A stretch of 64,000 bases of DNA, taken from contig NZ_JBBKAH010000001.1 of the NCBI RefSeq assembly GCF_037652055.1, positions 66,221 to 130,220 of the forward strand. Reading direction: 5' to 3'. The notes beneath the pieces are model-generated. The model was not told the DNA's origin and made no database searches. It worked only from the letters and a program-made list of their open reading frames with translations. Below are positions 17,273 to 42,647 of this stretch, one piece after another. The stretch's first letter is position 1; every line of letters begins with the position of its first letter. This DNA is from Pelagibius sp. 7325. GTDB lineage: Bacteria; Pseudomonadota; Alphaproteobacteria; Kiloniellales; Kiloniellaceae. The translations under genes and the position numbers were made by a program.

Positions 17273-19219
17273 CTACGCATACCAACTTGGTGGAACTAGG
17301 AATCTACCGCGTCTCCATTCCTCAACTATCGCACGCTCAAACCAGTCCTCATTCAAATGCGCATGATCCAACACAATCAACTGCAATCCGTTGATGACTT
17401 GACACTCGCGATGCATTAGCTCGAACAATGCATGTACAGCATGTCGATCTTTGTCCTCCAAAGGATCTAAGCTTCCTTCTTGGTCACGCTCCGCTGGATA
17501 ATGAGCTTGCGATGGCTGATCGAAAATGAGAACCCCAGGAACTGGTCGATCCCGCTTCCGAAACCACCAATGCAATGCAAGGTACGTCAACACGTGATAG
17601 CCAACCCAATTTTCACCACTACCCATTCGATTGAGTGGAATTGGACCATCATCGGTATCAGCGACGACTGTCAATTTCTTAAGATCAAGCCGCAGCGCAC
17701 TACCACTGTGCTCCAAATCCAACGCCTCAGCATAGATTGACATTTGCTTGCTGATTAAGTTGAGGTAGGTGTCTGTTTTCTGCGCAATTTCATCGATATC
17801 AACAGCCGCTTCAAGAGCTTGCACCCTACGCTTAGCTGCTTCAATCTGGGGCACTAGGTCTACGGCAACATCAGGTGGTCGGATGCCGTCTATAAATGCT
17901 CCGATACGACCCACCACCCGCGCGCGTTCCAATAGAATATCCTGCTGGGCTCTTGCCCGCTCATCTTCAGCAATTGCTCTCGCCAAAGAAGCCTGCGTTT
18001 CCACTAGCGATTTCTCTAATGCGTCGCGCTTACTCGTGAGCTGCTCAAGATGCCTTTGCAGGTGAGGCTGCTCCAGCTCTACCGATTCCAATTGCCTTGT
18101 CACATCAGAAAGCGCCGCTTCGATCTGTATTGATGCTGGCGTTGGAACAGCTAGTTCAGACTCGCAAACGGGACAAGCATGCCCTAAGTCTGCCCCAGAC
18201 TTGAACAAGCCAATCGCGCTAAGCCTAGCGCGCTGCTCGCTGCGTTCGCGAGAGTATGCGCTCTGCTCAGACATCAAGAGTCGCGCTGCTCGCAATTCTT
18301 CCGACGTCTGCTCGAGGGCCTCGCGCAAAGTCCCCTGCTCTTCGCGCAACCGATTAATAGTGGTGCCGAAGTCTGGAAGCGAGACGTTAGTTGCCAAATC
18401 GACCTGACTTGCCGCGCTTAGGACTTGCAGAGTGTCATCAACTACGACCGGCTCAAACTCCTGAGGAACGATATTGACACGCTTGCCGTCATTGATCAGC
18501 CGACGGAGCCTAACCAAGTCAACAACCTGCCGTTCTTCCTGCAGAGATGCCCGCTGCTGCAACTCCGCCAATAACTCCCTAGCCATATCGAGTTCATGCT
18601 GCCGAAGGAAGTGTTGATCATCGACCGCTCCAAGAAAGTATGGCAGGGTATCCTTAATGGCTTGCGGGATAAATTGCTCACCTTGTCGATGGAAGAGTCG
18701 TTCTCGATTATCTATTTCGTCCTGCTTCTGAAAACATAAAAAAAGAGCGTGTCGGATAGTTGCTTGCAGCGGCAAACGAGTGCCGCTTTGGGGGCGATGT
18801 TCATTTTCCGTTATGCCAACGAACCGTGTCAGCATTCGGACAATTTCACCCTCAACCACATTCGATTTGAGTTCGTCGAACACCGGCGGAGCTTCAAAGG
18901 CACCTCTTCGAATGTAAATTTCGCCACCACGATCGGTGCCGGGCCCCGGATTCTTCCGAGCAATAAACAGAACATCCTCACCCTTAACAACCTCAAGACC
19001 GAACCACGACACATAGCGCCGAACAATACCCTCAGCAACGTGACAATGACTGCGACCTAGACAGTAGTCGATAATATCAATAATTGCCGACTTTCCCGTC
19101 TTCGACTCCCCCGTAATGACGTTCAACCCCTCCATCTTAAACGGGAGGGTCCTTTGTTCCCCTTGGTGCGAGTACAGAACTATCGACTTGATTCTCATGC
19201 TCACGGTTTTATACCCCAA
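17273..19219 (-). CDS. SMC/Rad50-like P-loop ABC ATPase with coiled-coil and CxxC hook; candidate ABC-three-component (ABC-3C) system ATPase
   Basis: 648 aa. N-terminal strand plus Walker A (LNVITGESKTGKSAIIDIIDYCLG). Long heptad-rich middle with CPVCESEL. C-terminal LIFDQPSQ (Walker B/D-loop-like, DUF3732-like tail). Low GC. Confidence 0.7.
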   Translation of the reverse strand: MGYKTVSMRIKSIVLYSHQGEQRTLPFKMEGLNVITGESKTGKSAIIDIIDYCLGRSHCHVAEGIVRRYVSWFGLEVVKGEDVLFIARKNPGPGTDRGGEIYIRRGAFEAPPVFDELKSNVVEGEIVRMLTRFVGITENEHRPQSGTRLPLQATIRHALFLCFQKQDEIDNRERLFHRQGEQFIPQAIKDTLPYFLGAVDDQHFLRQHELDMARELLAELQQRASLQEERQVVDLVRLRRLINDGKRVNIVPQEFEPVVVDDTLQVLSAASQVDLATNVSLPDFGTTINRLREEQGTLREALEQTSEELRAARLLMSEQSAYSRERSEQRARLSAIGLFKSGADLGHACPVCESELAVPTPASIQIEAALSDVTRQLESVELEQPHLQRHLEQLTSKRDALEKSLVETQASLARAIAEDERARAQQDILLERARVVGRIGAFIDGIRPPDVAVDLVPQIEAAKRRVQALEAAVDIDEIAQKTDTYLNLISKQMSIYAEALDLEHSGSALRLDLKKLTVVADTDDGPIPLNRMGSGENWVGYHVLTYLALHWWFRKRDRPVPGVLIFDQPSQAHYPAERDQEGSLDPLEDKDRHAVHALFELMHRECQVINGLQLIVLDHAHLNEDWFERAIVEEWRRGRFLVPPSWYA

Positions 19220-19704
19220 CTAGATAAGATAGTTGACGTCGTACCCGCCTTTGCGAACCATCGCCCAAGCAGACGAGCGCTCGAGACACAGCCCTGGGCA
19301 TCATATGTCAGGCTATGGATGAACTTCTGTGACACAGCCAATTTTTGTGCACCGAGTTGCAAGCCGCCGTCTGTCGAAATTGTCAGAGCTCCTTTATCAA
19401 TGCAGAAGCGAACCGCTTCCTGAAGCGTCGGCCGAAGACCCTTTGCTCTCTGAACATACCCGACCATGACTTCGGGGTTCCGTTCGCGCCAAGTGTACAT
19501 TGATGTTAAGGTCGTTGAAGGGAGTGCATTCCGCGTCCTTGCATGCAATGCAATCGGCAACCCGCAAAATGGGAGCACAAATGGACAGGGAGCAGCAGTA
19601 CTTTTCTGATACTCCTTCACGAACTCGATGGCGAGCATTCCACAGAATGCCGGATTAAAAAGTGTTGCCTCTTCCTTCGGCCTAGCATCCCATTTTGGAA
19701 GCAT
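19201..19704 (-). CDS. hypothetical protein; candidate middle component of the three-gene system
   Basis: 167-aa ORF overlapping the downstream ATPase start by 19 bp and abutting the upstream gene stop. Low GC, no recognisable motif. Confidence 0.55.
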   Translation of the reverse strand: MLPKWDARPKEEATLFNPAFCGMLAIEFVKEYQKSTAAPCPFVLPFCGLPIALHARTRNALPSTTLTSMYTWRERNPEVMVGYVQRAKGLRPTLQEAVRFCIDKGALTISTDGGLQLGAQKLAVSQKFIHSLTYDAQGCVSSARLLGRWFAKAGTTSTILSSWGIKP

Positions 19705-20897
19705 TAGCCATCACCTTTTGATTTCTTCTCAGAGAACAAGGCCTGATAGTCGGGATGCCAACCCACCCTCACACTGTCTGCAAGAATCTGATACGAACCG
19801 GTACAAAGCCAACGCTCATGTCTATTTCGAAAAGGTAGCTCGCTCCGGTTGGCCCAATGATATAAGGTGCGCCCAAAAACTTTTTTTAGGTCGTCTGATG
19901 ACAAGTCAGCAGTATCTTGCTGAGCCAATGATTCACTCTGCCAGCGTTCGATAAGCGCTTCGTCATAGCGGCTCGATTCACCGTCAAGAAGGACATTCTC
20001 TCGTGCCCACGCAGTTCGTTGCGCTGAGGCTCGGTAATAGTCGCGCTTTCCCAATTCGACGACGGGGTCAGAGAGACCAACGCACTTCATCTGTTTGACG
20101 AAGATGTGGTTATCAGATGCGAGTTCCGCGTCCGGAACTTCTGAGACCTCTTGGTGGAGCATGAGATCACCCATACGAAATTGAGAAGCGATCTCGTCGA
20201 TTTTCTGTCGAAGCGACAGAAGAGATATCGGCGGTGCCGACGCATCGGTTAGAGCTTTGACGATAGTCGCAAACCACCAACCTTCCAAGTGATCGACGAG
20301 CTTTGCAACGTGTTGTGCCGGGGAAGCGAAAGCTAGTCTTTCTTCAATCTCGCTGCGCACATCAGTAATTGTTGGAGCATTATCATGGACCACAATTGCT
20401 GCAACGAGATCTTTTCTCATCTGACTCGGCAAAGACAGGAAAGCTTCCCGGGCGACTGTTGTCGCCTTGTTGCTAGATGAAGCAGCGATTCGACTCAAGA
20501 TATCGAGAGCTTCTGCTTCGTCATTATCATTGCGACCAACTCGCAACTTCGCGGCTACAGAATCTTTCGGCGCCGTAGCAGTTGTGATAATCGAAAACTT
20601 GCACTCATACAGGGCTTGAGGATTCGAAACGATCTGTTCGCTCCAGATTCGCAACGTCTTCCAGAGATCTGAGCTAGCATCCGTGAGACTAGATGCAATA
20701 GAATGATGTTTGAGTTGAAACTGCGATGTTATTCCGGCTGCAGTCTCAAAAGAGACATCGTCAAACTTTTCGACGCACAAAAGACGATTCGGGAATCGAG
20801 CGCTTTCTTCAATGGCGAGTAGAAGAGCTTCTCTGCACTGATACAGATAACCGACCATAGATGCAGCCGCGCTGTACTTAGACGGACCATTTGTCAT
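19704..20897 (-). CDS. hypothetical protein with N-terminal PD-(D/E)xK-like nuclease motif; candidate effector of the three-gene system
   Basis: 397 aa. The N-terminus GYLYQCREALLLAIE...CVEKFDDVSFE...FQLKHH resembles the E-x(n)-DD-x(n)-QxK REase-like core seen in Cap4/DUF4297-type effectors. The rest is alpha-helical and unassigned. Confidence 0.55.
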   Translation of the reverse strand: MTNGPSKYSAAASMVGYLYQCREALLLAIEESARFPNRLLCVEKFDDVSFETAAGITSQFQLKHHSIASSLTDASSDLWKTLRIWSEQIVSNPQALYECKFSIITTATAPKDSVAAKLRVGRNDNDEAEALDILSRIAASSSNKATTVAREAFLSLPSQMRKDLVAAIVVHDNAPTITDVRSEIEERLAFASPAQHVAKLVDHLEGWWFATIVKALTDASAPPISLLSLRQKIDEIASQFRMGDLMLHQEVSEVPDAELASDNHIFVKQMKCVGLSDPVVELGKRDYYRASAQRTAWARENVLLDGESSRYDEALIERWQSESLAQQDTADLSSDDLKKVFGRTLYHWANRSELPFRNRHERWLCTGSYQILADSVRVGWHPDYQALFSEKKSKGDG

Positions 20898-32943: not shown

Positions 32944-33016
32944 TCGCGATGGCGGGAGTTGAACCCGCGACAGCTGGAGTGAAAATCCAGTGCTCTAACC
33001 CACTGAGCTACATCCA
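32944..33016 (-). tRNA. tRNA-like gene, anticodon UUC (Glu by anticodon; Val-like body), acceptor stem only 4 bp
   Basis: Minus-strand read: D-arm GCTCAGTGGGTTAGAGC, anticodon arm CTGGA-TTTTCAC-TCCAG, T-arm GCGGGTTCAACTCCCGC. The 5' ATGGATG and 3' CATCGCG acceptor strands pair at only 4 positions, and there is no encoded CCA. Confidence 0.5.
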
Positions 33017-33092
33017 TGGCGCCGAACACGGGAATTGAACCCGTGACCCCCGGATCGACAATCCGGTGCTCTCACCACTGAGCTAGTTCGGC
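33017..33092 (-). tRNA. tRNA-Asp (anticodon GUC)
   Basis: Minus-strand read GCCGAACTAGCTCAGTGGTGAGAGCACCGGATTGTCGATCCGGGGGTCACGGGTTCAATTCCCGTGTTCGGCGCCA. Perfect 7-bp acceptor stem, GTC anticodon, encoded CCA. Confidence 0.85.
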
Positions 33093-35519: not shown

Positions 35520-36926
35520 CTATTTCGTTGAAGCCAGTGAACGCTCTATTTTATGAAGCCAGCCCTCGATCTCCTGAGTCGCATTCTCATGGGGCGACGC
35601 TTTGCGAATCTCATCAAGTTCAGAACGTGCAATGGCTACTGTCCGCCAAAGATTCTGGTCGGGGTTCTGACCCAGTAATCTGTCCCTTATTCCTTGTTTG
35701 ACCCGAGATCTATCGCTTTTCGAAAGACTCTCTGGAGCCATCAAGAAAATGAGCCTTTGTGCGATCTGCTGAAACCTTGGATCGTTGAACTTCCGAATGA
35801 GGCTTGCCCTTTGAGACCAAGGTGTTTCTGCAAAATTTCGCATCACCATTTCGTCATGTTTGCCTGGAAACCCTTCGAAAATCCTTTGCTCTAAAGCTCT
35901 TGGTTCCGGCCACTCTTCTCTCATTTTCGTTGCGAGCTTCACTAGGATGGCCCTTCGCTCGGGGGACGCGAGAAACGCAGCTTCTTCTGCCACTCTCTTG
36001 GATGGCACAATCCCAAGGTGCGCTCCGGCCTCATACTGGCTAGCAGCAATAGGAAACATGTTCTCCTTGAAACGTCGAATCCGAAATGTATGGCTCGTGA
36101 TGAGCATCTCCTGTGATGAGATCGTATTCGAGAAGAATCTTCGCCAGTCGGCCTCCAATTTGGCCACAAACTTGGCTGATTTCTGTTTGTTATCAGAACC
36201 GATTGGAAGCCCCCACCAACCAGGGCGGCCGTCCTTAGAAGGTTCTGCAAAAAAGATAGGCTTCCCTGTATTCACTAGCCGAGACGCAAATTCTCGATCG
36301 GAACAGTCCAAGAACAGGGCCCATAGCGCTTGGGACCTCGATGCGATTTTCTTGCAAATGTGAATGACGGCCAGCACATCTCCCAAGGCATCATGCGCAT
36401 CGGTGTGAGCGTATCCATTCAATGGGGCAAGCCGATCCAAACGAAATATAGGGCGACCAGATGCAATGTTAGGCACTACAAGTGCATGCGGTGAGATCCT
36501 CGACATAGCACGCACTAGAGGCAAAACGTCCGCCCTAGCGTTGCCATGAGTGACGGTTAGGTAAGGCGGGTTCAATGTTTGCCACAGCGCCCGTTGCAGA
36601 AGCGGCTCATCGAACTGGAATGAGTTGTACCCAATGAAGAGTGCAGGAGACCAGGATCGCAACCTCTCCTGTATACTCGCCATCATATCGGGAAATTGTG
36701 GCAGATTAGGGTTGTCAATTTGACTTGGCGAAATGCCGGTAACGATCATCGCACTGGGCGACGGGACTATCCATGGCAATCGTCGGCACCTGATATTTAT
36801 GCGATCAAGCTCTTTAAAGCTCTTGTCGGTCAATATGGCCGCAAACTGAATAATTTGATCAAACTCAACATTCGTTCCGGTTGTTTCGGTATCATAAAAT
36901 ACAAAATTTCGAGTATCGCCAGACAC
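35520..36926 (-). CDS. exodeoxyribonuclease I (SbcB)-like DEDDh 3'-5' exonuclease
   Basis: 468 aa. Exo I motif FYDTETTG, Exo II FIGYNSFQFDE, Exo III HTDAHDALGDV, plus a long C-terminal helical/SH3-like region collinear with E. coli ExoI. Low GC. Confidence 0.8.
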   Translation of the reverse strand: MSGDTRNFVFYDTETTGTNVEFDQIIQFAAILTDKSFKELDRINIRCRRLPWIVPSPSAMIVTGISPSQIDNPNLPQFPDMMASIQERLRSWSPALFIGYNSFQFDEPLLQRALWQTLNPPYLTVTHGNARADVLPLVRAMSRISPHALVVPNIASGRPIFRLDRLAPLNGYAHTDAHDALGDVLAVIHICKKIASRSQALWALFLDCSDREFASRLVNTGKPIFFAEPSKDGRPGWWGLPIGSDNKQKSAKFVAKLEADWRRFFSNTISSQEMLITSHTFRIRRFKENMFPIAASQYEAGAHLGIVPSKRVAEEAAFLASPERRAILVKLATKMREEWPEPRALEQRIFEGFPGKHDEMVMRNFAETPWSQRASLIRKFNDPRFQQIAQRLIFLMAPESLSKSDRSRVKQGIRDRLLGQNPDQNLWRTVAIARSELDEIRKASPHENATQEIEGWLHKIERSLASTK

Positions 36927-36936
36927 ATTATCGCTC

Positions 36937-38499
36937 TCAATAATATGAATATGGCGGAGGTTCGACGCCCTCTAGGCCAAATGTATAGTAGTATTTGCGC
37001 GCAGCTCGCCAGCCTCGAACAAAGCTAGGGAGACGCGGGTTCGGGCAATTTGGGCCACGCCATGCTCTCTTGTCGAGCCATTGGCCGAGGATGAGTTCCT
37101 CGGCCGAGGGCGAGAGGCCTTTTCGCTTGTACTTGATCTTCAGAATGCGCTGCCTCTTCCTCATTGCAAGCCGTAGGCTCACAAGCAACCAGCGATCCAA
37201 CTCCTTAAGCGTTTCAGCGTCTTCAAGAAGGGCGTAAAATCCCATCAAGCCCCGCATCTCGCGTAGCTTGTCGCCACCGTTGAGAAATTTAGTGATCTCT
37301 TCCTCTTCGAGTCCGCCATAGAGGTATCCTCGCAACTCAAGAACGAGTCCAAGAAGGTCCCAGTCGTATGGCTTGCGTACCGTGCGGCAGCGGTTCTTAT
37401 TGAATCCAAATTTTTTAGGATACTGAATCAGATAGACTTGTATAAGCCGTGACATTTTCGCGATTATACGTGCCCGGACATGATCGGGGATCTTAAGGCC
37501 GCCCTTGGTAAACCGATATCCAAGATAGTCGAATCCAGAATAACTTCTAATTTCCGCTTCATCTTTGCCAATGATAGCGATTCCGGGCGATTTCTTCTCA
37601 TTTATTATGAGGCCACTGTTCTGGCAGTGCTCGATAAACGTCTCTTCAAGTTCCTCCGCTTCAGCGTAGGTCGAGCAAAGGGCAACTACGTCGTCCGCGT
37701 ACCTGACAAAGCGTCCTGATTTCCGTTCCAAGGAACGATCAAGCTCGTGGTTGGCGAGATTCGCAAGAAGAAGTGAGACAGACGAGCCTTGCGGCGTGCC
37801 AATGTGCCGCCTCGCGAAATCTCCAATTAGATAGTCAGAAACGCTCGCAAACTGGTGTCGCATGAACTCCTTTAGTACGAAGCGCTCATGGGGCGTAACA
37901 GCTACAAGCTCTCTATCGTCAATACATCGCTCCATGTATCGAGTTGGGATAGTGTCGAAGTATTTTTGAAAATCGATCTGCACGGCAAACAATCTTTGAT
38001 CAGTCATGAACCCTTTCAGGGCCAAGATAGCATCAAACACATCACGTTCAGGGTGGTAAGCGTAAGAAAAGGGCGAAAGTCTCTTGATATTCCGATCCCT
38101 GGCCCTTCGAAGCACCACGTTTGCCAGCGCCGCATCTGGGATGGCAAAAGCCATAATCTCCCTGACTCCGCCTTGAGGCTTAGGAATCTGATACCTGACC
38201 GCCGGTACCGGCTCGTAGGTGGCATCAAGGACCTTTTTCCAAATCGTCTTTGCGATGATGTTAGCGTTTCTCGCGCAATGGGTAGGATCAAAGTGTCGAT
38301 GAACTTTCGCCAGCGAGGATGCTGGCTTCGGCAGTCCTGCTTTCAATCCAGTCCGCTTCTCAAATTTTTGCCGATCCTGACGCGCCTTTGCATCGCGGCC
38401 ATTGTTTCGCCGCCCTGCGCGCCGGCAAAGTCTTTTGATTTCCTGTTTTAGAGCTTTTTCCATGAGGGCGGCGAGGGGTCTTAGATCAAGGGTTTCCAC
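36937..38499 (-). CDS. reverse transcriptase (retron/group-II-intron-like RT fold, no maturase/endonuclease; unclassified defence-type RT)
   Basis: 520 aa. RT motifs are 0 VRYQIPKPQGGVREI, 1/2 AFAIPDAALANVVL, A FAVQIDFQKYFDTIP, B' IGTPQGSSVSLLLANL, C VRYADDVVAL and the thumb-like GFDYLGYRF. A ~150-aa helical C-terminal extension follows. Low GC, 10-bp gap to the ExoI-like gene. Confidence 0.85.
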   Translation of the reverse strand: METLDLRPLAALMEKALKQEIKRLCRRAGRRNNGRDAKARQDRQKFEKRTGLKAGLPKPASSLAKVHRHFDPTHCARNANIIAKTIWKKVLDATYEPVPAVRYQIPKPQGGVREIMAFAIPDAALANVVLRRARDRNIKRLSPFSYAYHPERDVFDAILALKGFMTDQRLFAVQIDFQKYFDTIPTRYMERCIDDRELVAVTPHERFVLKEFMRHQFASVSDYLIGDFARRHIGTPQGSSVSLLLANLANHELDRSLERKSGRFVRYADDVVALCSTYAEAEELEETFIEHCQNSGLIINEKKSPGIAIIGKDEAEIRSYSGFDYLGYRFTKGGLKIPDHVRARIIAKMSRLIQVYLIQYPKKFGFNKNRCRTVRKPYDWDLLGLVLELRGYLYGGLEEEEITKFLNGGDKLREMRGLMGFYALLEDAETLKELDRWLLVSLRLAMRKRQRILKIKYKRKGLSPSAEELILGQWLDKRAWRGPNCPNPRLPSFVRGWRAARKYYYTFGLEGVEPPPYSYY

Positions 38500-39456
38500 T
38501 GACGAAGCGTACCTAAGGGCTTATCGTCACCCCTCAGCGCATTGGTGCCTCGACACCAGGTAACTTGACCCCTCGCCTAGGCTACTACGCCATTCAAAAA
38601 AAGTGTCGAGATTAGCTGGCGACGTCAAGCTATTTGAGCGTTAACAACTGGAAGAAAAATGAAAAACTGCCATAGACCAGTCTGCTAGGCGAACAAAAGG
38701 TTAGCCAGAAAGGGGCCTGCATGCCATGACGAGCGTGTTGCCAAGTACATAGCAACGATCTTGGATCTCGTTACTTATCAGGCGGCAATCGCCTCGACCC
38801 GCGTTCTATACGCGCCCGCCTGCGGCTACACAATTCGACTACTCTGCTGGTCACAATCCGCGGAGCACCGGGCGTGACCGTGCTGCCCAAGTTGGTCGCA
38901 ACAACGACACCGATCGCCTTCTGTGAGATCGCTAAGCCAATTACGCAGTGCCAGATTGGCCTGATCAGCCGTTCTATGGATTTGCCCGGTCCAGCAATGC
39001 TCGCCTTTGCAGATTTCGCCCCATTCCACGTGCCAGCAAGGAAAGGAACCTGCTGACGGACTTCTAGCGGGAGTCGAGGCGAATGATCGCTGCTGCTGCC
39101 AACTGTTTCTCAGAACTCCAGTCTGAATTTGGCATGATCCGCTCCGGCTCAACTTGAGTCCCGTGGCCCGGCTGCGGGCAGACCGGCGTCCAGCCTTAGC
39201 GAGGACGCTTCCCCCAAATACAAAACCGCGCCCTTCGGTCCCTCTCGAACTGAGGGTGAAGGACGCGGTGGAAGCGTCGGATGCCTGCTTGTCTGTCCGT
39301 CGTGCCGGCGACTGCTTTTGTGGCTGCTTTTCGCTTCTGCTTTTGCTGCTCTCCTGAAGGGTTCCTTCCCTTCGGCACGGGCCTGCCTGGCTGCCAGATG
39401 ACCGGCGCCTGCGTATCAGGCGTTGCTTGACTGAGGCTTTGTGCTTGGGAGTTTGG

Positions 39457-39624
39457 CTAGCTGTCCATGTGTCCCGCGATTTCGTCCTTGATCCGGAGTT
39501 TTTCGCGTTTAAGTTCAATAATCCGGAGATCGTCGGGATGCGGCCTGTGTTCTTCCTCGTCGATTGCGTTTTCGATAGCCGCGTGCTTGGTTCGCAACGA
39601 CGCGATACGCTCATCTGCTGGCAT
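39457..39624 (-). CDS. DUF465 (YdcH-like) small protein
   Basis: MPADERIASLRTKHAAIENAIDEEEHRPHPDDLRIIELKREKLRIKDEIAG. A paralogue lies at 42432-42647. Confidence 0.6.
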   Translation of the reverse strand: MPADERIASLRTKHAAIENAIDEEEHRPHPDDLRIIELKREKLRIKDEIAGHMDS

Positions 39625-39740
39625 TCGGAACCTCCAATGAGCCTCTAGGTACCCGAATATGCTAGACCAGGGACCGTTCGATTGCAATTCGATGACGCCC
39701 CCGGCGCGTGGAAAAACTTAGGTTAAGTTAGGTTAAGTCT

Positions 39741-42431: not shown

Positions 42432-42647
42432 ATGAGCGCAATGGATCAACCGGATCTCGACCAGCTGCGTCGCAAACTCGCCGAGCTCAAATCGGAGCAC
42501 CGCGACCTCGACGACGTCATCAGCCATCTCGCGGAAACCCGCCCCTTCGACCAGCTTCAGCTGCAGCGCCTGAAGAAGCGCAAGCTGGCGCTGAAGGACC
42601 AGATCCTGAAGCTGGAAGACGCCATGCTGCCGGATATCATCGCTTAG
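42432..42647 (+). CDS. DUF465 (YdcH-like) small protein
   Basis: LRRKLAELKSEHRDLDDVISHL...LQRLKKRKLALKDQILKLE. Confidence 0.7.
   Translation: MSAMDQPDLDQLRRKLAELKSEHRDLDDVISHLAETRPFDQLQLQRLKKRKLALKDQILKLEDAMLPDIIA

Follow-up and report, generated by a model that had tools for sequence, protein, structure and literature searches.

The genome of the alphaproteobacterium Pelagibius sp. 7325 encodes, within the 64,000-nucleotide stretch analysed here (contig NZ_JBBKAH010000001.1, positions 66,221 to 130,220; hereafter the window), a cassette in which a reverse transcriptase (RT) of the defence-associated RT family DRT9 (UG28) is preceded by a structured non-coding RNA (ncRNA) and followed by a gene for an exonuclease resembling exonuclease I (ExoI, SbcB). 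The conserved unit is exactly these three parts, about 3.07 kb in all, and the exonuclease is a genuine co-inherited partner of the RT, not a chance neighbour. We consider it somewhat probable (roughly 55%) that the cassette is a DRT9 system with a built-in silencer, the exonuclease, that would be overridden by phage factors.

Components of the cassette

The RT and exonuclease genes lie on the minus strand of one operon, with 10 nt between the RT stop codon and the exonuclease GTG. The initial annotation of this DNA had placed both open reading frames (ORFs) correctly in the interval 35520-38499 with this same spacing, and the motifs that it quoted for both proteins are all in the translations; it had called the genes fused, which they are not, being adjacent, and its interval takes in both ORFs but omits the ncRNA (38464-38593) and the -35 box (38623-38628) of its putative promoter.

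The RT is a member of DRT9/UG28, a clade of the Class 2 UG/Abi RTs. It matches the PADLOC Drt9 model from end to end (E 6e-156, 518 bits; residues 13-520 against model positions 1-487 of 488), with the next DRT model (UG17) at 76 bits and the PADLOC generic RT model at 114 bits, and the suggestion of an RT-based defence locus is borne out by this match. RTs of the type found in Salmonella enterica and E. coli (SenDRT9; Sen-type below), an intermediate RT, a Pectobacterium RT and a near relative of the window RT score 707, 533, 544 and 505 bits with the same model, so that all belong to one named family. Homology to the solved DRT9 RT (9ioa, 9iob, 9nlv, 9nlx, 9vku and 9vma, entries that are one 499-aa sequence) is clear but distant, at roughly 35–40% identity, with residues 66-465 aligned by phmmer (E 8.8e-57). 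The active site reads FVRYADDVV (YADD), and RVT_1 is the only Pfam domain.

Two other classes of RT were considered and rejected. A group II intron, which the initial annotation had also set aside, is not supported by the Pfam result or by the TIGR04416 model, which covers only the RT core at 138 bits against a cut-off of 300, and Rfam detects no intron RNA in the 30-44 kb region. Retron RT models stay far below their cut-offs, with E-values of 1e-10 to 1e-12 as against 6e-156 for Drt9, and the RNA upstream matches the DRT9-type model described below and no Rfam retron family.

The C-terminus of the RT is PPPYSYY; over 20 homologues Y517 never varies and Y520 is conserved in at least 90%. Sen-type RTs end in NYDYV or EYTY, and two conserved C-terminal tyrosines are the probable primers of DNA synthesis in DRT9 (PMC12483538); the window RT is predicted from its sequence to have a Tyr-rich priming tail of this kind. 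RTs of the window clade, with or without an exonuclease gene, stop shortly past the conserved PP-Y (YSYY, YEYY, YGYY), and more distant alpha-type RTs have about ten extra C-terminal residues (e.g. KYGFYSDFDDLFDY). RefSeq (WP_340115271.1) shares the 520-aa call for the RT, whose GTG start at 38497-38499 sits within the candidate template loop of the ncRNA; because homologues and the PADLOC model begin at Met13 of this call, the true start is probably ATG 38461-38463, giving a protein of 508 aa.

The exonuclease has the Pfam domains RNase_T and Exonuc_X-T_C and matches the PADLOC model RTasSbcB (PDLC03817) with an E-value of 7e-125, over residues 8-459 and model positions 2-435 of 436. Residues D12, E14, D106, H178 and D183 align with D15, E17, D108, H181 and D186 of the E. 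coli enzyme, and these DEDDh residues are invariant or nearly so in a 19-sequence alignment. An AlphaFold2 model (pLDDT 89.5, pTM 0.88) is matched by Foldseek to the E. coli and Methylocaldum ExoI structures 4js4, 1fxx and 4rg8 with TM-scores of 0.81–0.84 over about 480 columns; the next matches, TREX1 and RNase T, cover the nuclease domain only. As modelled, then, it is a complete three-domain ExoI-fold enzyme, in line with the full-length ExoI-like architecture first proposed for it. It belongs to a divergent family and is not an sbcB orthologue, since it scores 167.8 bits over the full length of NCBIfam PRK11779, below the equivalog cut-off of 260, has 24% identity to E. coli SbcB, and its family lies on a long branch from SbcB in a neighbour-joining tree. 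By BLASTP, R148 and Y207 of E. coli ExoI, which we take to be residues that contact the tail of the single-stranded DNA-binding protein SSB, stand opposite Ser and Leu in the window exonuclease.

DRT9 is defined as an RT with an upstream ncRNA, both of which are required for defence (PMC9226505). A search of the 30-44 kb region with Rfam at permissive thresholds returned tRNAs only and no DRT9 RNA family. Upstream regions were compared among 60 DRT9 loci gathered from reference genomes, and an iterated nhmmer profile recovers a conserved core in 48 of 53 DRT9 loci, the window included. The RNA is 125–175 nt long across loci, reaches to just short of the RT ATG, and has a long closing stem whose two strands vary together between loci. 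The conserved 5' end, GGCGUAGUAGCC (GGCG), is preceded by TTGAC at a distance of about 30 nt, the sole conserved element upstream of the RNA (about 47 loci). The window counterpart, TTGACG at 38623-38628, is the putative -35 box of the ncRNA promoter, followed after a 17-nt spacer by a weak -10 box (CACTTT, 38600-38605); a consensus promoter scan of the window did not list this -35 box.

In the window RNA a 5' hairpin (38580-38591) precedes the closing stem (38567-38577 with 38470-38480), which encloses SL2 (38542-38560) and further stem-loops; its minimum free energy is -55.3 kcal/mol (z -3.5), and none of 200 shuffled sequences folds as well. The consensus structure from a 22-sequence alignment has five helices, and in 27 of its 31 pairs both partners change without loss of pairing. 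Paired cells make up 93%, as against 35–54% when the partners are slid by 1–3 columns, and the covariation score is 0.68, as against at most 0.17 with slid partners; the observed values were reached by none of 500 shuffles. A covariance model built from this alignment (R1) has a single match in the window, at 38462-38591 on the minus strand (91.6 bits, E 5.5e-20), and, applied to 14 alpha-type loci from outside the training set, picks up the RNA in front of the RT in every one. It gives a correctly placed, marginal match in an intermediate locus (L053, E 0.037) and no match in loci with UG6 RTs or ImmA/IrrE genes.

In SenDRT9 a loop with a run of four uridines (U4, U123-126) templates poly-dA synthesis, and altering U4 abolishes defence or switches the product; in the E. 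coli DRT9 structure U124-127 lie next to the C-terminal loop. At L143, a Sen-type locus with an RT that shares 79% identity with the solved one, ACUUUUAC adjoins the 3' strand of the closing stem on its 5' side and is the counterpart of the published U123-126; an RNA start placed 122 nt before the first U of this motif would be 7 nt past a -10-like box, which fits the published numbering. The same place in the window RNA, next to the 3' strand of the closing stem, is occupied by GGAAACCCUUGAUCUAAGA (reading UUGAUCU), whose longest U run is two and which, on sequence and position, is the candidate template loop; most alpha-type loci have CCCUKACUYU. The cDNA of the window system may thus be something other than pure poly-dA. 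If so, a repeat cDNA complementary to part of CCCUUGAUCUAAG would be a new product class, and the altered loop suggests that poly-dA is not made by all systems named DRT9. Loop sequence and exonuclease presence show no clean correlation across loci. Runs of T were rejected as a template locator; the T7 at 38596-38602 is in the promoter region and is not conserved.

Linkage of the exonuclease to DRT9 and to other partners

RT and exonuclease matches occur on one contig in at least 10 cases, and in the 10 loci where both genes are intact the exonuclease gene follows the RT gene on the same strand, with spacing from a 4-nt overlap to a 31-nt gap. The flanks at L145, L147 and L149 are unrelated, with a relaxase and type IV secretion element at L145, a TetR and peptidase neighbourhood at L147, and CTP synthase and enolase genes at L149. 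Every relative starts to align with the window DNA at 38593, in the first bases of the ncRNA, and the alignment with L145 (85% identical) stops at 35557, in the 3'-terminal part of the exonuclease gene; it is this span, from 38593 to 35557, that defines ncRNA, RT and exonuclease as the unit.

The two proteins diverge together, their identities to the window copies falling in step (RT/exonuclease 92/79, 80/52, 74/47, 67/44, 59/36, 58/37 and 56/37%), and the exonuclease is kept in all 13 informative relatives with at least 67% RT identity, so that RT-ExoI co-occurrence in other genomes, a check named in the initial annotation, holds. A neighbour-joining tree groups the exonuclease-linked RTs with the window RT in a single clade; L001 and L006 make up a neighbouring clade, and L022 stands apart. 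The initial annotation had envisaged, as an outcome that would refute its proposal, an RT that clusters with a characterised DRT type and stands beside an unrelated exonuclease gene: the RT does cluster with one, and the exonuclease is not unrelated but co-conserved.

Several loci vary from this arrangement. In Hyphomonas adhaerens MHS-3 (L151, ARYH01000002.1), two genes of unknown function (347 and 110 aa) come after the DRT9 RT and its ncRNA, and an ExoI-like gene lies 1.7 kb downstream on the opposite strand, convergent, with DNA methylase and SNF2 helicase genes in the flank. Three DRT9 loci are decayed: the RT of L042 (Zymomonas mobilis AN0101) is frameshifted at residue 312 and has no exonuclease gene beside it, L040 has frameshifts in both RT and exonuclease, and L041 has several in the RT. 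Complete genomes of E. coli gave no blastn match to the Pectobacterium DRT9, DRT9 is essentially absent from the plasmid collection, where matches are at 31–34% identity only, and an exact-sequence look-up of a 387-aa exonuclease call gave no contig.

The exonuclease family itself was surveyed in 80 metagenomic relatives collected with the exonuclease alignment. A DRT9 RT precedes the exonuclease gene in two of them, the two closest. In about 32 of the 80, an ImmA/IrrE gene (about 175 aa, Peptidase_M78, PADLOC capP-like) lies directly upstream at 6–67 nt; these loci include L071, L073-L075, L081, L083, L092, L099, L107, L110, L113-L115, L120, L124-L127, L129, L131, L132, L134 and L135. ImmA/IrrE and exonuclease genes thus form a recurrent two-gene module, and similar pairs are present on conjugative rhizobial and Methylocystis plasmids. 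Five loci (L066, L068, L069, L070 and L082) have a UG6 RT of about 1,080 aa (PADLOC RT_UG6, more than 1,100 bits) about 1 kb upstream of the exonuclease gene, with a weak C-N-hydrolase-like gene in between; the published description of UG6 names a hydrolase and a DnaG-type primase and no exonuclease (PMC9226505). Drt1a-like RTs adjoin the exonuclease in two or three loci (the two genes are divergent in L063 and L080, and share a strand in L072, where identity is only 30%), and may represent a third RT group using this family or a defence-island coincidence. The remaining members have no detected partner.

The exonuclease family is thus mobile, defence-associated and ExoI-like, and has been recruited by several RT groups. 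The idea that the RTasSbcB model was built for DRT9 is doubtful, as the UG6-linked copies score highest (622 bits, against 415 for the window copy), and the Mestre text gives no exonuclease partner for UG6 or UG28 (PMC9226505).

Role of the exonuclease

The mechanism of DRT9 was worked out between 2022 and 2025 (PMC9226505, PMC12483538, PMC12489045), and ExoI figures in it as a host factor. E. coli lacking sbcB cannot be transformed with wild-type SenDRT9 and tolerates an RT-dead mutant; poly-dA is degraded by ExoI, and T5 gp58 binds the 3' end and blocks this degradation (PMC12483538). Tolerance of DRT10 likewise needs the catalytic activity of ExoI, for which RecJ and ExoVII are no substitute (10.64898/2026.04.29.721553), and the DRT10 product is degraded by ExoI and not by the 5'-3' exonuclease RecJf, as its 5' end is protein-linked (PMC12632851).

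By analogy, the window cassette would be an abortive-infection system of three co-inherited parts, the ncRNA, a protein-priming RT and an ExoI-like 3'-5' exonuclease acting on single-stranded DNA (ssDNA). The RT-ncRNA complex, which is hexameric in characterised DRT9, would copy a short loop of the ncRNA repeatedly, as that system does, giving a long single-stranded cDNA whose 5' end would be covalently attached to a C-terminal tyrosine of the RT. In the uninfected cell the ExoI-like enzyme from the same operon would erase this product continuously, which would make tolerance of the system independent of host nucleases. On infection, phage factors, candidates being those that cover DNA 3' ends as a cap or coat, those that inhibit ExoI and those that enlarge dNTP pools, would let the cDNA accumulate until cell growth is arrested. 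A product with a blocked 5' end would be removable only by a 3'-5' exonuclease (host ExoI in E. coli), and it is because a predicted maker of 5'-blocked ssDNA carries its own 3'-5' ssDNA exonuclease in its operon that we favour a silencer role.

A wider version of this proposal is possible, and we advance it tentatively. In it the cassette would be a self-contained guard circuit: the DRT9-family RT would make a protein-primed cDNA, not of poly-dA since the template loop lacks a U run, and an ExoI-like enzyme devoted to this product and co-evolving with the RT would destroy it for as long as no phage obstructs either the enzyme or the 3' end of the DNA. The mobile exonuclease family would more broadly serve as an all-purpose cDNA eraser or 3'-end sensor, taken up in separate events by UG28, UG6 and Drt1a-like RTs, at least three UG/Abi groups, and by ImmA/IrrE-type sensors.

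The following observations weigh against the silencer reading or the generality of the link. The intact RTs of L158-L160, at 62–66% identity to the window RT, have no exonuclease gene, which rules out that the exonuclease is obligatory for the window RT clade; it is present at 4 of about 50 reference-genome DRT9 loci and absent from about 46, and at none of the six IMG/VR viral contigs (L152-L157) with alpha-type DRT9 RTs. The exonuclease is therefore an accessory of DRT9, and since the loci that lack it are mostly alphaproteobacterial, hosts without sbcB are not the whole story. The family's association with ImmA/IrrE genes, UG6 and Drt1a-like RTs or no detected partner points to uses beyond DRT9. 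The U4 run of SenDRT9 is absent from the window template loop, and the R1 model finds no match upstream of Sen-type RTs, even with filters off; being blind to the Sen-type RNA, it leaves the homology of the window RNA to the characterised ncRNA to architecture and position, which by inspection and folding are the same.

Other roles for the exonuclease can be weighed against the same evidence. It could be an effector arm, activated by the RT or its cDNA and degrading phage single-stranded intermediates of replication or packaging, or host DNA ends, and thereby halting infection: pairing of an RT with a separate effector protein is common (retrons, DRT8, and UG6 with its hydrolase; general knowledge and PMC9226505), the exonuclease gene is in the usual downstream effector position, and the same family stands beside UG6 and Drt1a-like RTs. 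This is unlikely, as characterised DRT9 requires no protein effector, ExoI folds act only on free single-stranded 3' ends and would be a poor lone weapon against phages with double-stranded DNA, close RT relatives without the exonuclease are intact, and published genetics make ExoI an antagonist of DRT9 and DRT10, not their executor. A maturation factor that trims the RT product or a second strand, comparable to the trimming of retron msDNA, would suit a loop that differs from the poly-dA template and a product that may need processing, and SbcB appears to degrade one DRT10 cDNA strand selectively (10.64898/2026.04.29.721553); we regard it as rather improbable, given that ExoI is processive and degrades ssDNA completely and that most DRT9 loci work without the exonuclease.

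An independent function of the exonuclease in defence or anti-defence, its gene merely travelling beside the RT with no functional coupling, might be argued from the roughly 32 of 80 homologues that follow an ImmA/IrrE (CapP-like) peptidase gene, from the others with no detected partner, from the Hyphomonas adhaerens gene 1.7 kb away on the opposite strand, and from the near-relative RTs that lack it. The tight same-strand spacing at 10 loci, the shared DNA block that ends at the ncRNA start and inside the exonuclease 3' end between differing flanks, and the co-divergence of the two proteins make this highly improbable, and the published ExoI-DRT9 genetics supply a specific functional reason for the pairing. 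Next to no probability attaches to a categorically new RT system outside the known DRT, retron and Abi types, the view taken in the initial annotation, to which the generic RefSeq names and the absence of the pairing from the literature searched might seem to lend weight; it is refuted by the end-to-end Drt9 match, the matches to solved DRT9 structures, the DRT9-style ncRNA and the predicted priming tail.

Work of 2025–2026 showed that uninfected E. coli survives DRT9 and DRT10 because host ExoI acts as the brake on them, and a natural, co-evolving ncRNA-RT-ExoI cassette is independent comparative evidence on this silencing. If the silencer reading is right, the tension between cDNA synthesis and 3'-5' degradation would be a selected and portable part of the system, and the cassette draws attention to ExoI inhibitors and 3'-end binders of phages as candidate triggers. 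Family members beside UG6 and Drt1a-like RTs suggest that the principle extends to uncharacterised RT systems.

Genomic setting and comparison with known systems

An acyl-CoA synthetase gene and ubiX flank the islet, about 4.4 kb in size, that holds the cassette. As first noted from the sequence, GC content is low here, at 0.49–0.56 between 35 and 39 kb against about 0.68 in the surroundings. Neither an integrase, nor att-like flanking repeats, nor a terminator was detected in the islet. The RefSeq labels of both proteins are generic, and WP_340115271.1 and WP_340115270.1 could be renamed as a DRT9 RT, with its start codon reassigned to Met13, and a DRT-associated ExoI-like exonuclease. Coordinates are given in the table.

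Features of the DRT9 cassette and of a second defence system in the window (window coordinates)
Feature	Position	Strand	Details
RT ORF	36937-38499	minus	520 aa from GTG (maximal ORF)
DRT9 (UG28) reverse transcriptase	36937-38463	minus	508 aa from ATG 38463 (probable start); RefSeq WP_340115271.1
ExoI (SbcB)-like DEDDh 3'-5' exonuclease	35520-36926	minus	468 aa, GTG start; RefSeq WP_340115270.1
DRT9-type ncRNA, about 128–130 nt	38464-38593	minus	profile, fold and covariation
Candidate template loop GGAAACCCUUGAUCUAAGA	38479-38497	minus	mapped against Sen-type L143
Putative promoter-like -35 box TTGACG for the ncRNA	38623-38628	minus	from sequence and position
LmuA	19704-20897	minus	PADLOC E 4e-53; Pfam CTD7
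LmuC	19201-19704	minus	PADLOC E 9e-13; Pfam MC3
LmuB	17273-19219	minus	PADLOC E 3e-123; Pfam DUF3732

Upstream of the ncRNA promoter is a low-GC stretch of about 620 nt (38830-39450) with no convincing ORF or Pfam match, which is not common to the 85%-identical relative L145; beyond it is a DUF465 gene (39457-39687), and a second DUF465-like ORF is at 42432-42647. On the other side, about 2.2 kb from the islet and separated from it by the acyl-CoA synthetase gene, there are two adjoining Rfam tRNA matches on the minus strand (32948-33092), one of 73.5 bits (33020-33092) and one of 58.8 bits (32948-33014) that spans model positions 4-67. ARAGORN calls only one tRNA, tRNA-Asp, and truncation of a tRNA copy may account for the weaker match. 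Elsewhere in the window, another low-GC islet (17273-20897, minus strand; GC about 0.50) encodes a complete Lamassu/ABC-3C defence system.

DRT9 has been described as an RT with its ncRNA and an occasional SLATT partner (7 of 124 in PMC9226505; also PMC12483538), with SbcB as a host factor. Full-text literature searches found neither an ExoI encoded by an RT system nor the term RTasSbcB, the DRT10 papers (PMC12632851, 10.64898/2026.04.29.721553) mention no system-encoded exonuclease, and the supplements of Tang 2025 (PMC12483538) contain neither an ncRNA sequence nor a mention of an exonuclease. An exonuclease-carrying DRT9 cassette is thus undescribed in the literature searched, and PADLOC catalogues the gene family as DRT-associated.

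The closest characterised system is the DRT9 of Salmonella enterica and E. coli (SenDRT9; PDB 9nlv, 9ioa, 9vku), with which the window cassette shares the RT family, the YADD motif and the Tyr-rich tail, a structured ncRNA directly upstream on the same strand, and residence in a small mobile islet. The two RNAs have the same plan: after a 5' hairpin, a long stem encloses internal stem-loops and, right in front of its closing strand, a loop. They differ in that the RTs are only about 35–40% identical, the Sen-type RNA is missed by the alpha-type covariance model, the loop reads UUGAUCU in place of the essential U4, and the window RNA lacks a 3' terminator hairpin; and whereas SenDRT9 relies on the sbcB of its host, the window cassette encodes an ExoI-like exonuclease of its own.

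That exonuclease resembles E. coli ExoI (SbcB; PDB 1fxx, 4js4) in its modelled full-length three-domain fold and its DEDDh residues, and would be expected to degrade ssDNA from 3' to 5', the activity that neutralises DRT9 and DRT10 products. Unlike SbcB, to which its identity is 20–24%, it belongs to a mobile family found beside RTs or ImmA/IrrE genes and is not a housekeeping orthologue.

DRT10 (UG17; RT, ncRNA and SLATT) is likewise built from a Class 2 UG/Abi RT and an ncRNA, makes a protein-primed repetitive cDNA and specifically needs host SbcB for tolerance. Its RT is of another group (the window RT scores 76 bits with UG17, as against 518 with Drt9), and it has a SLATT membrane effector of its own and no reported encoded exonuclease. 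The UG6 loci (L066, L068-L070 and L082) share with the window a member of the exonuclease family downstream of the RT in the same operon, but differ in having a Class 3 RT of about 1,080 aa, a hydrolase partner and no demonstrated defence function.

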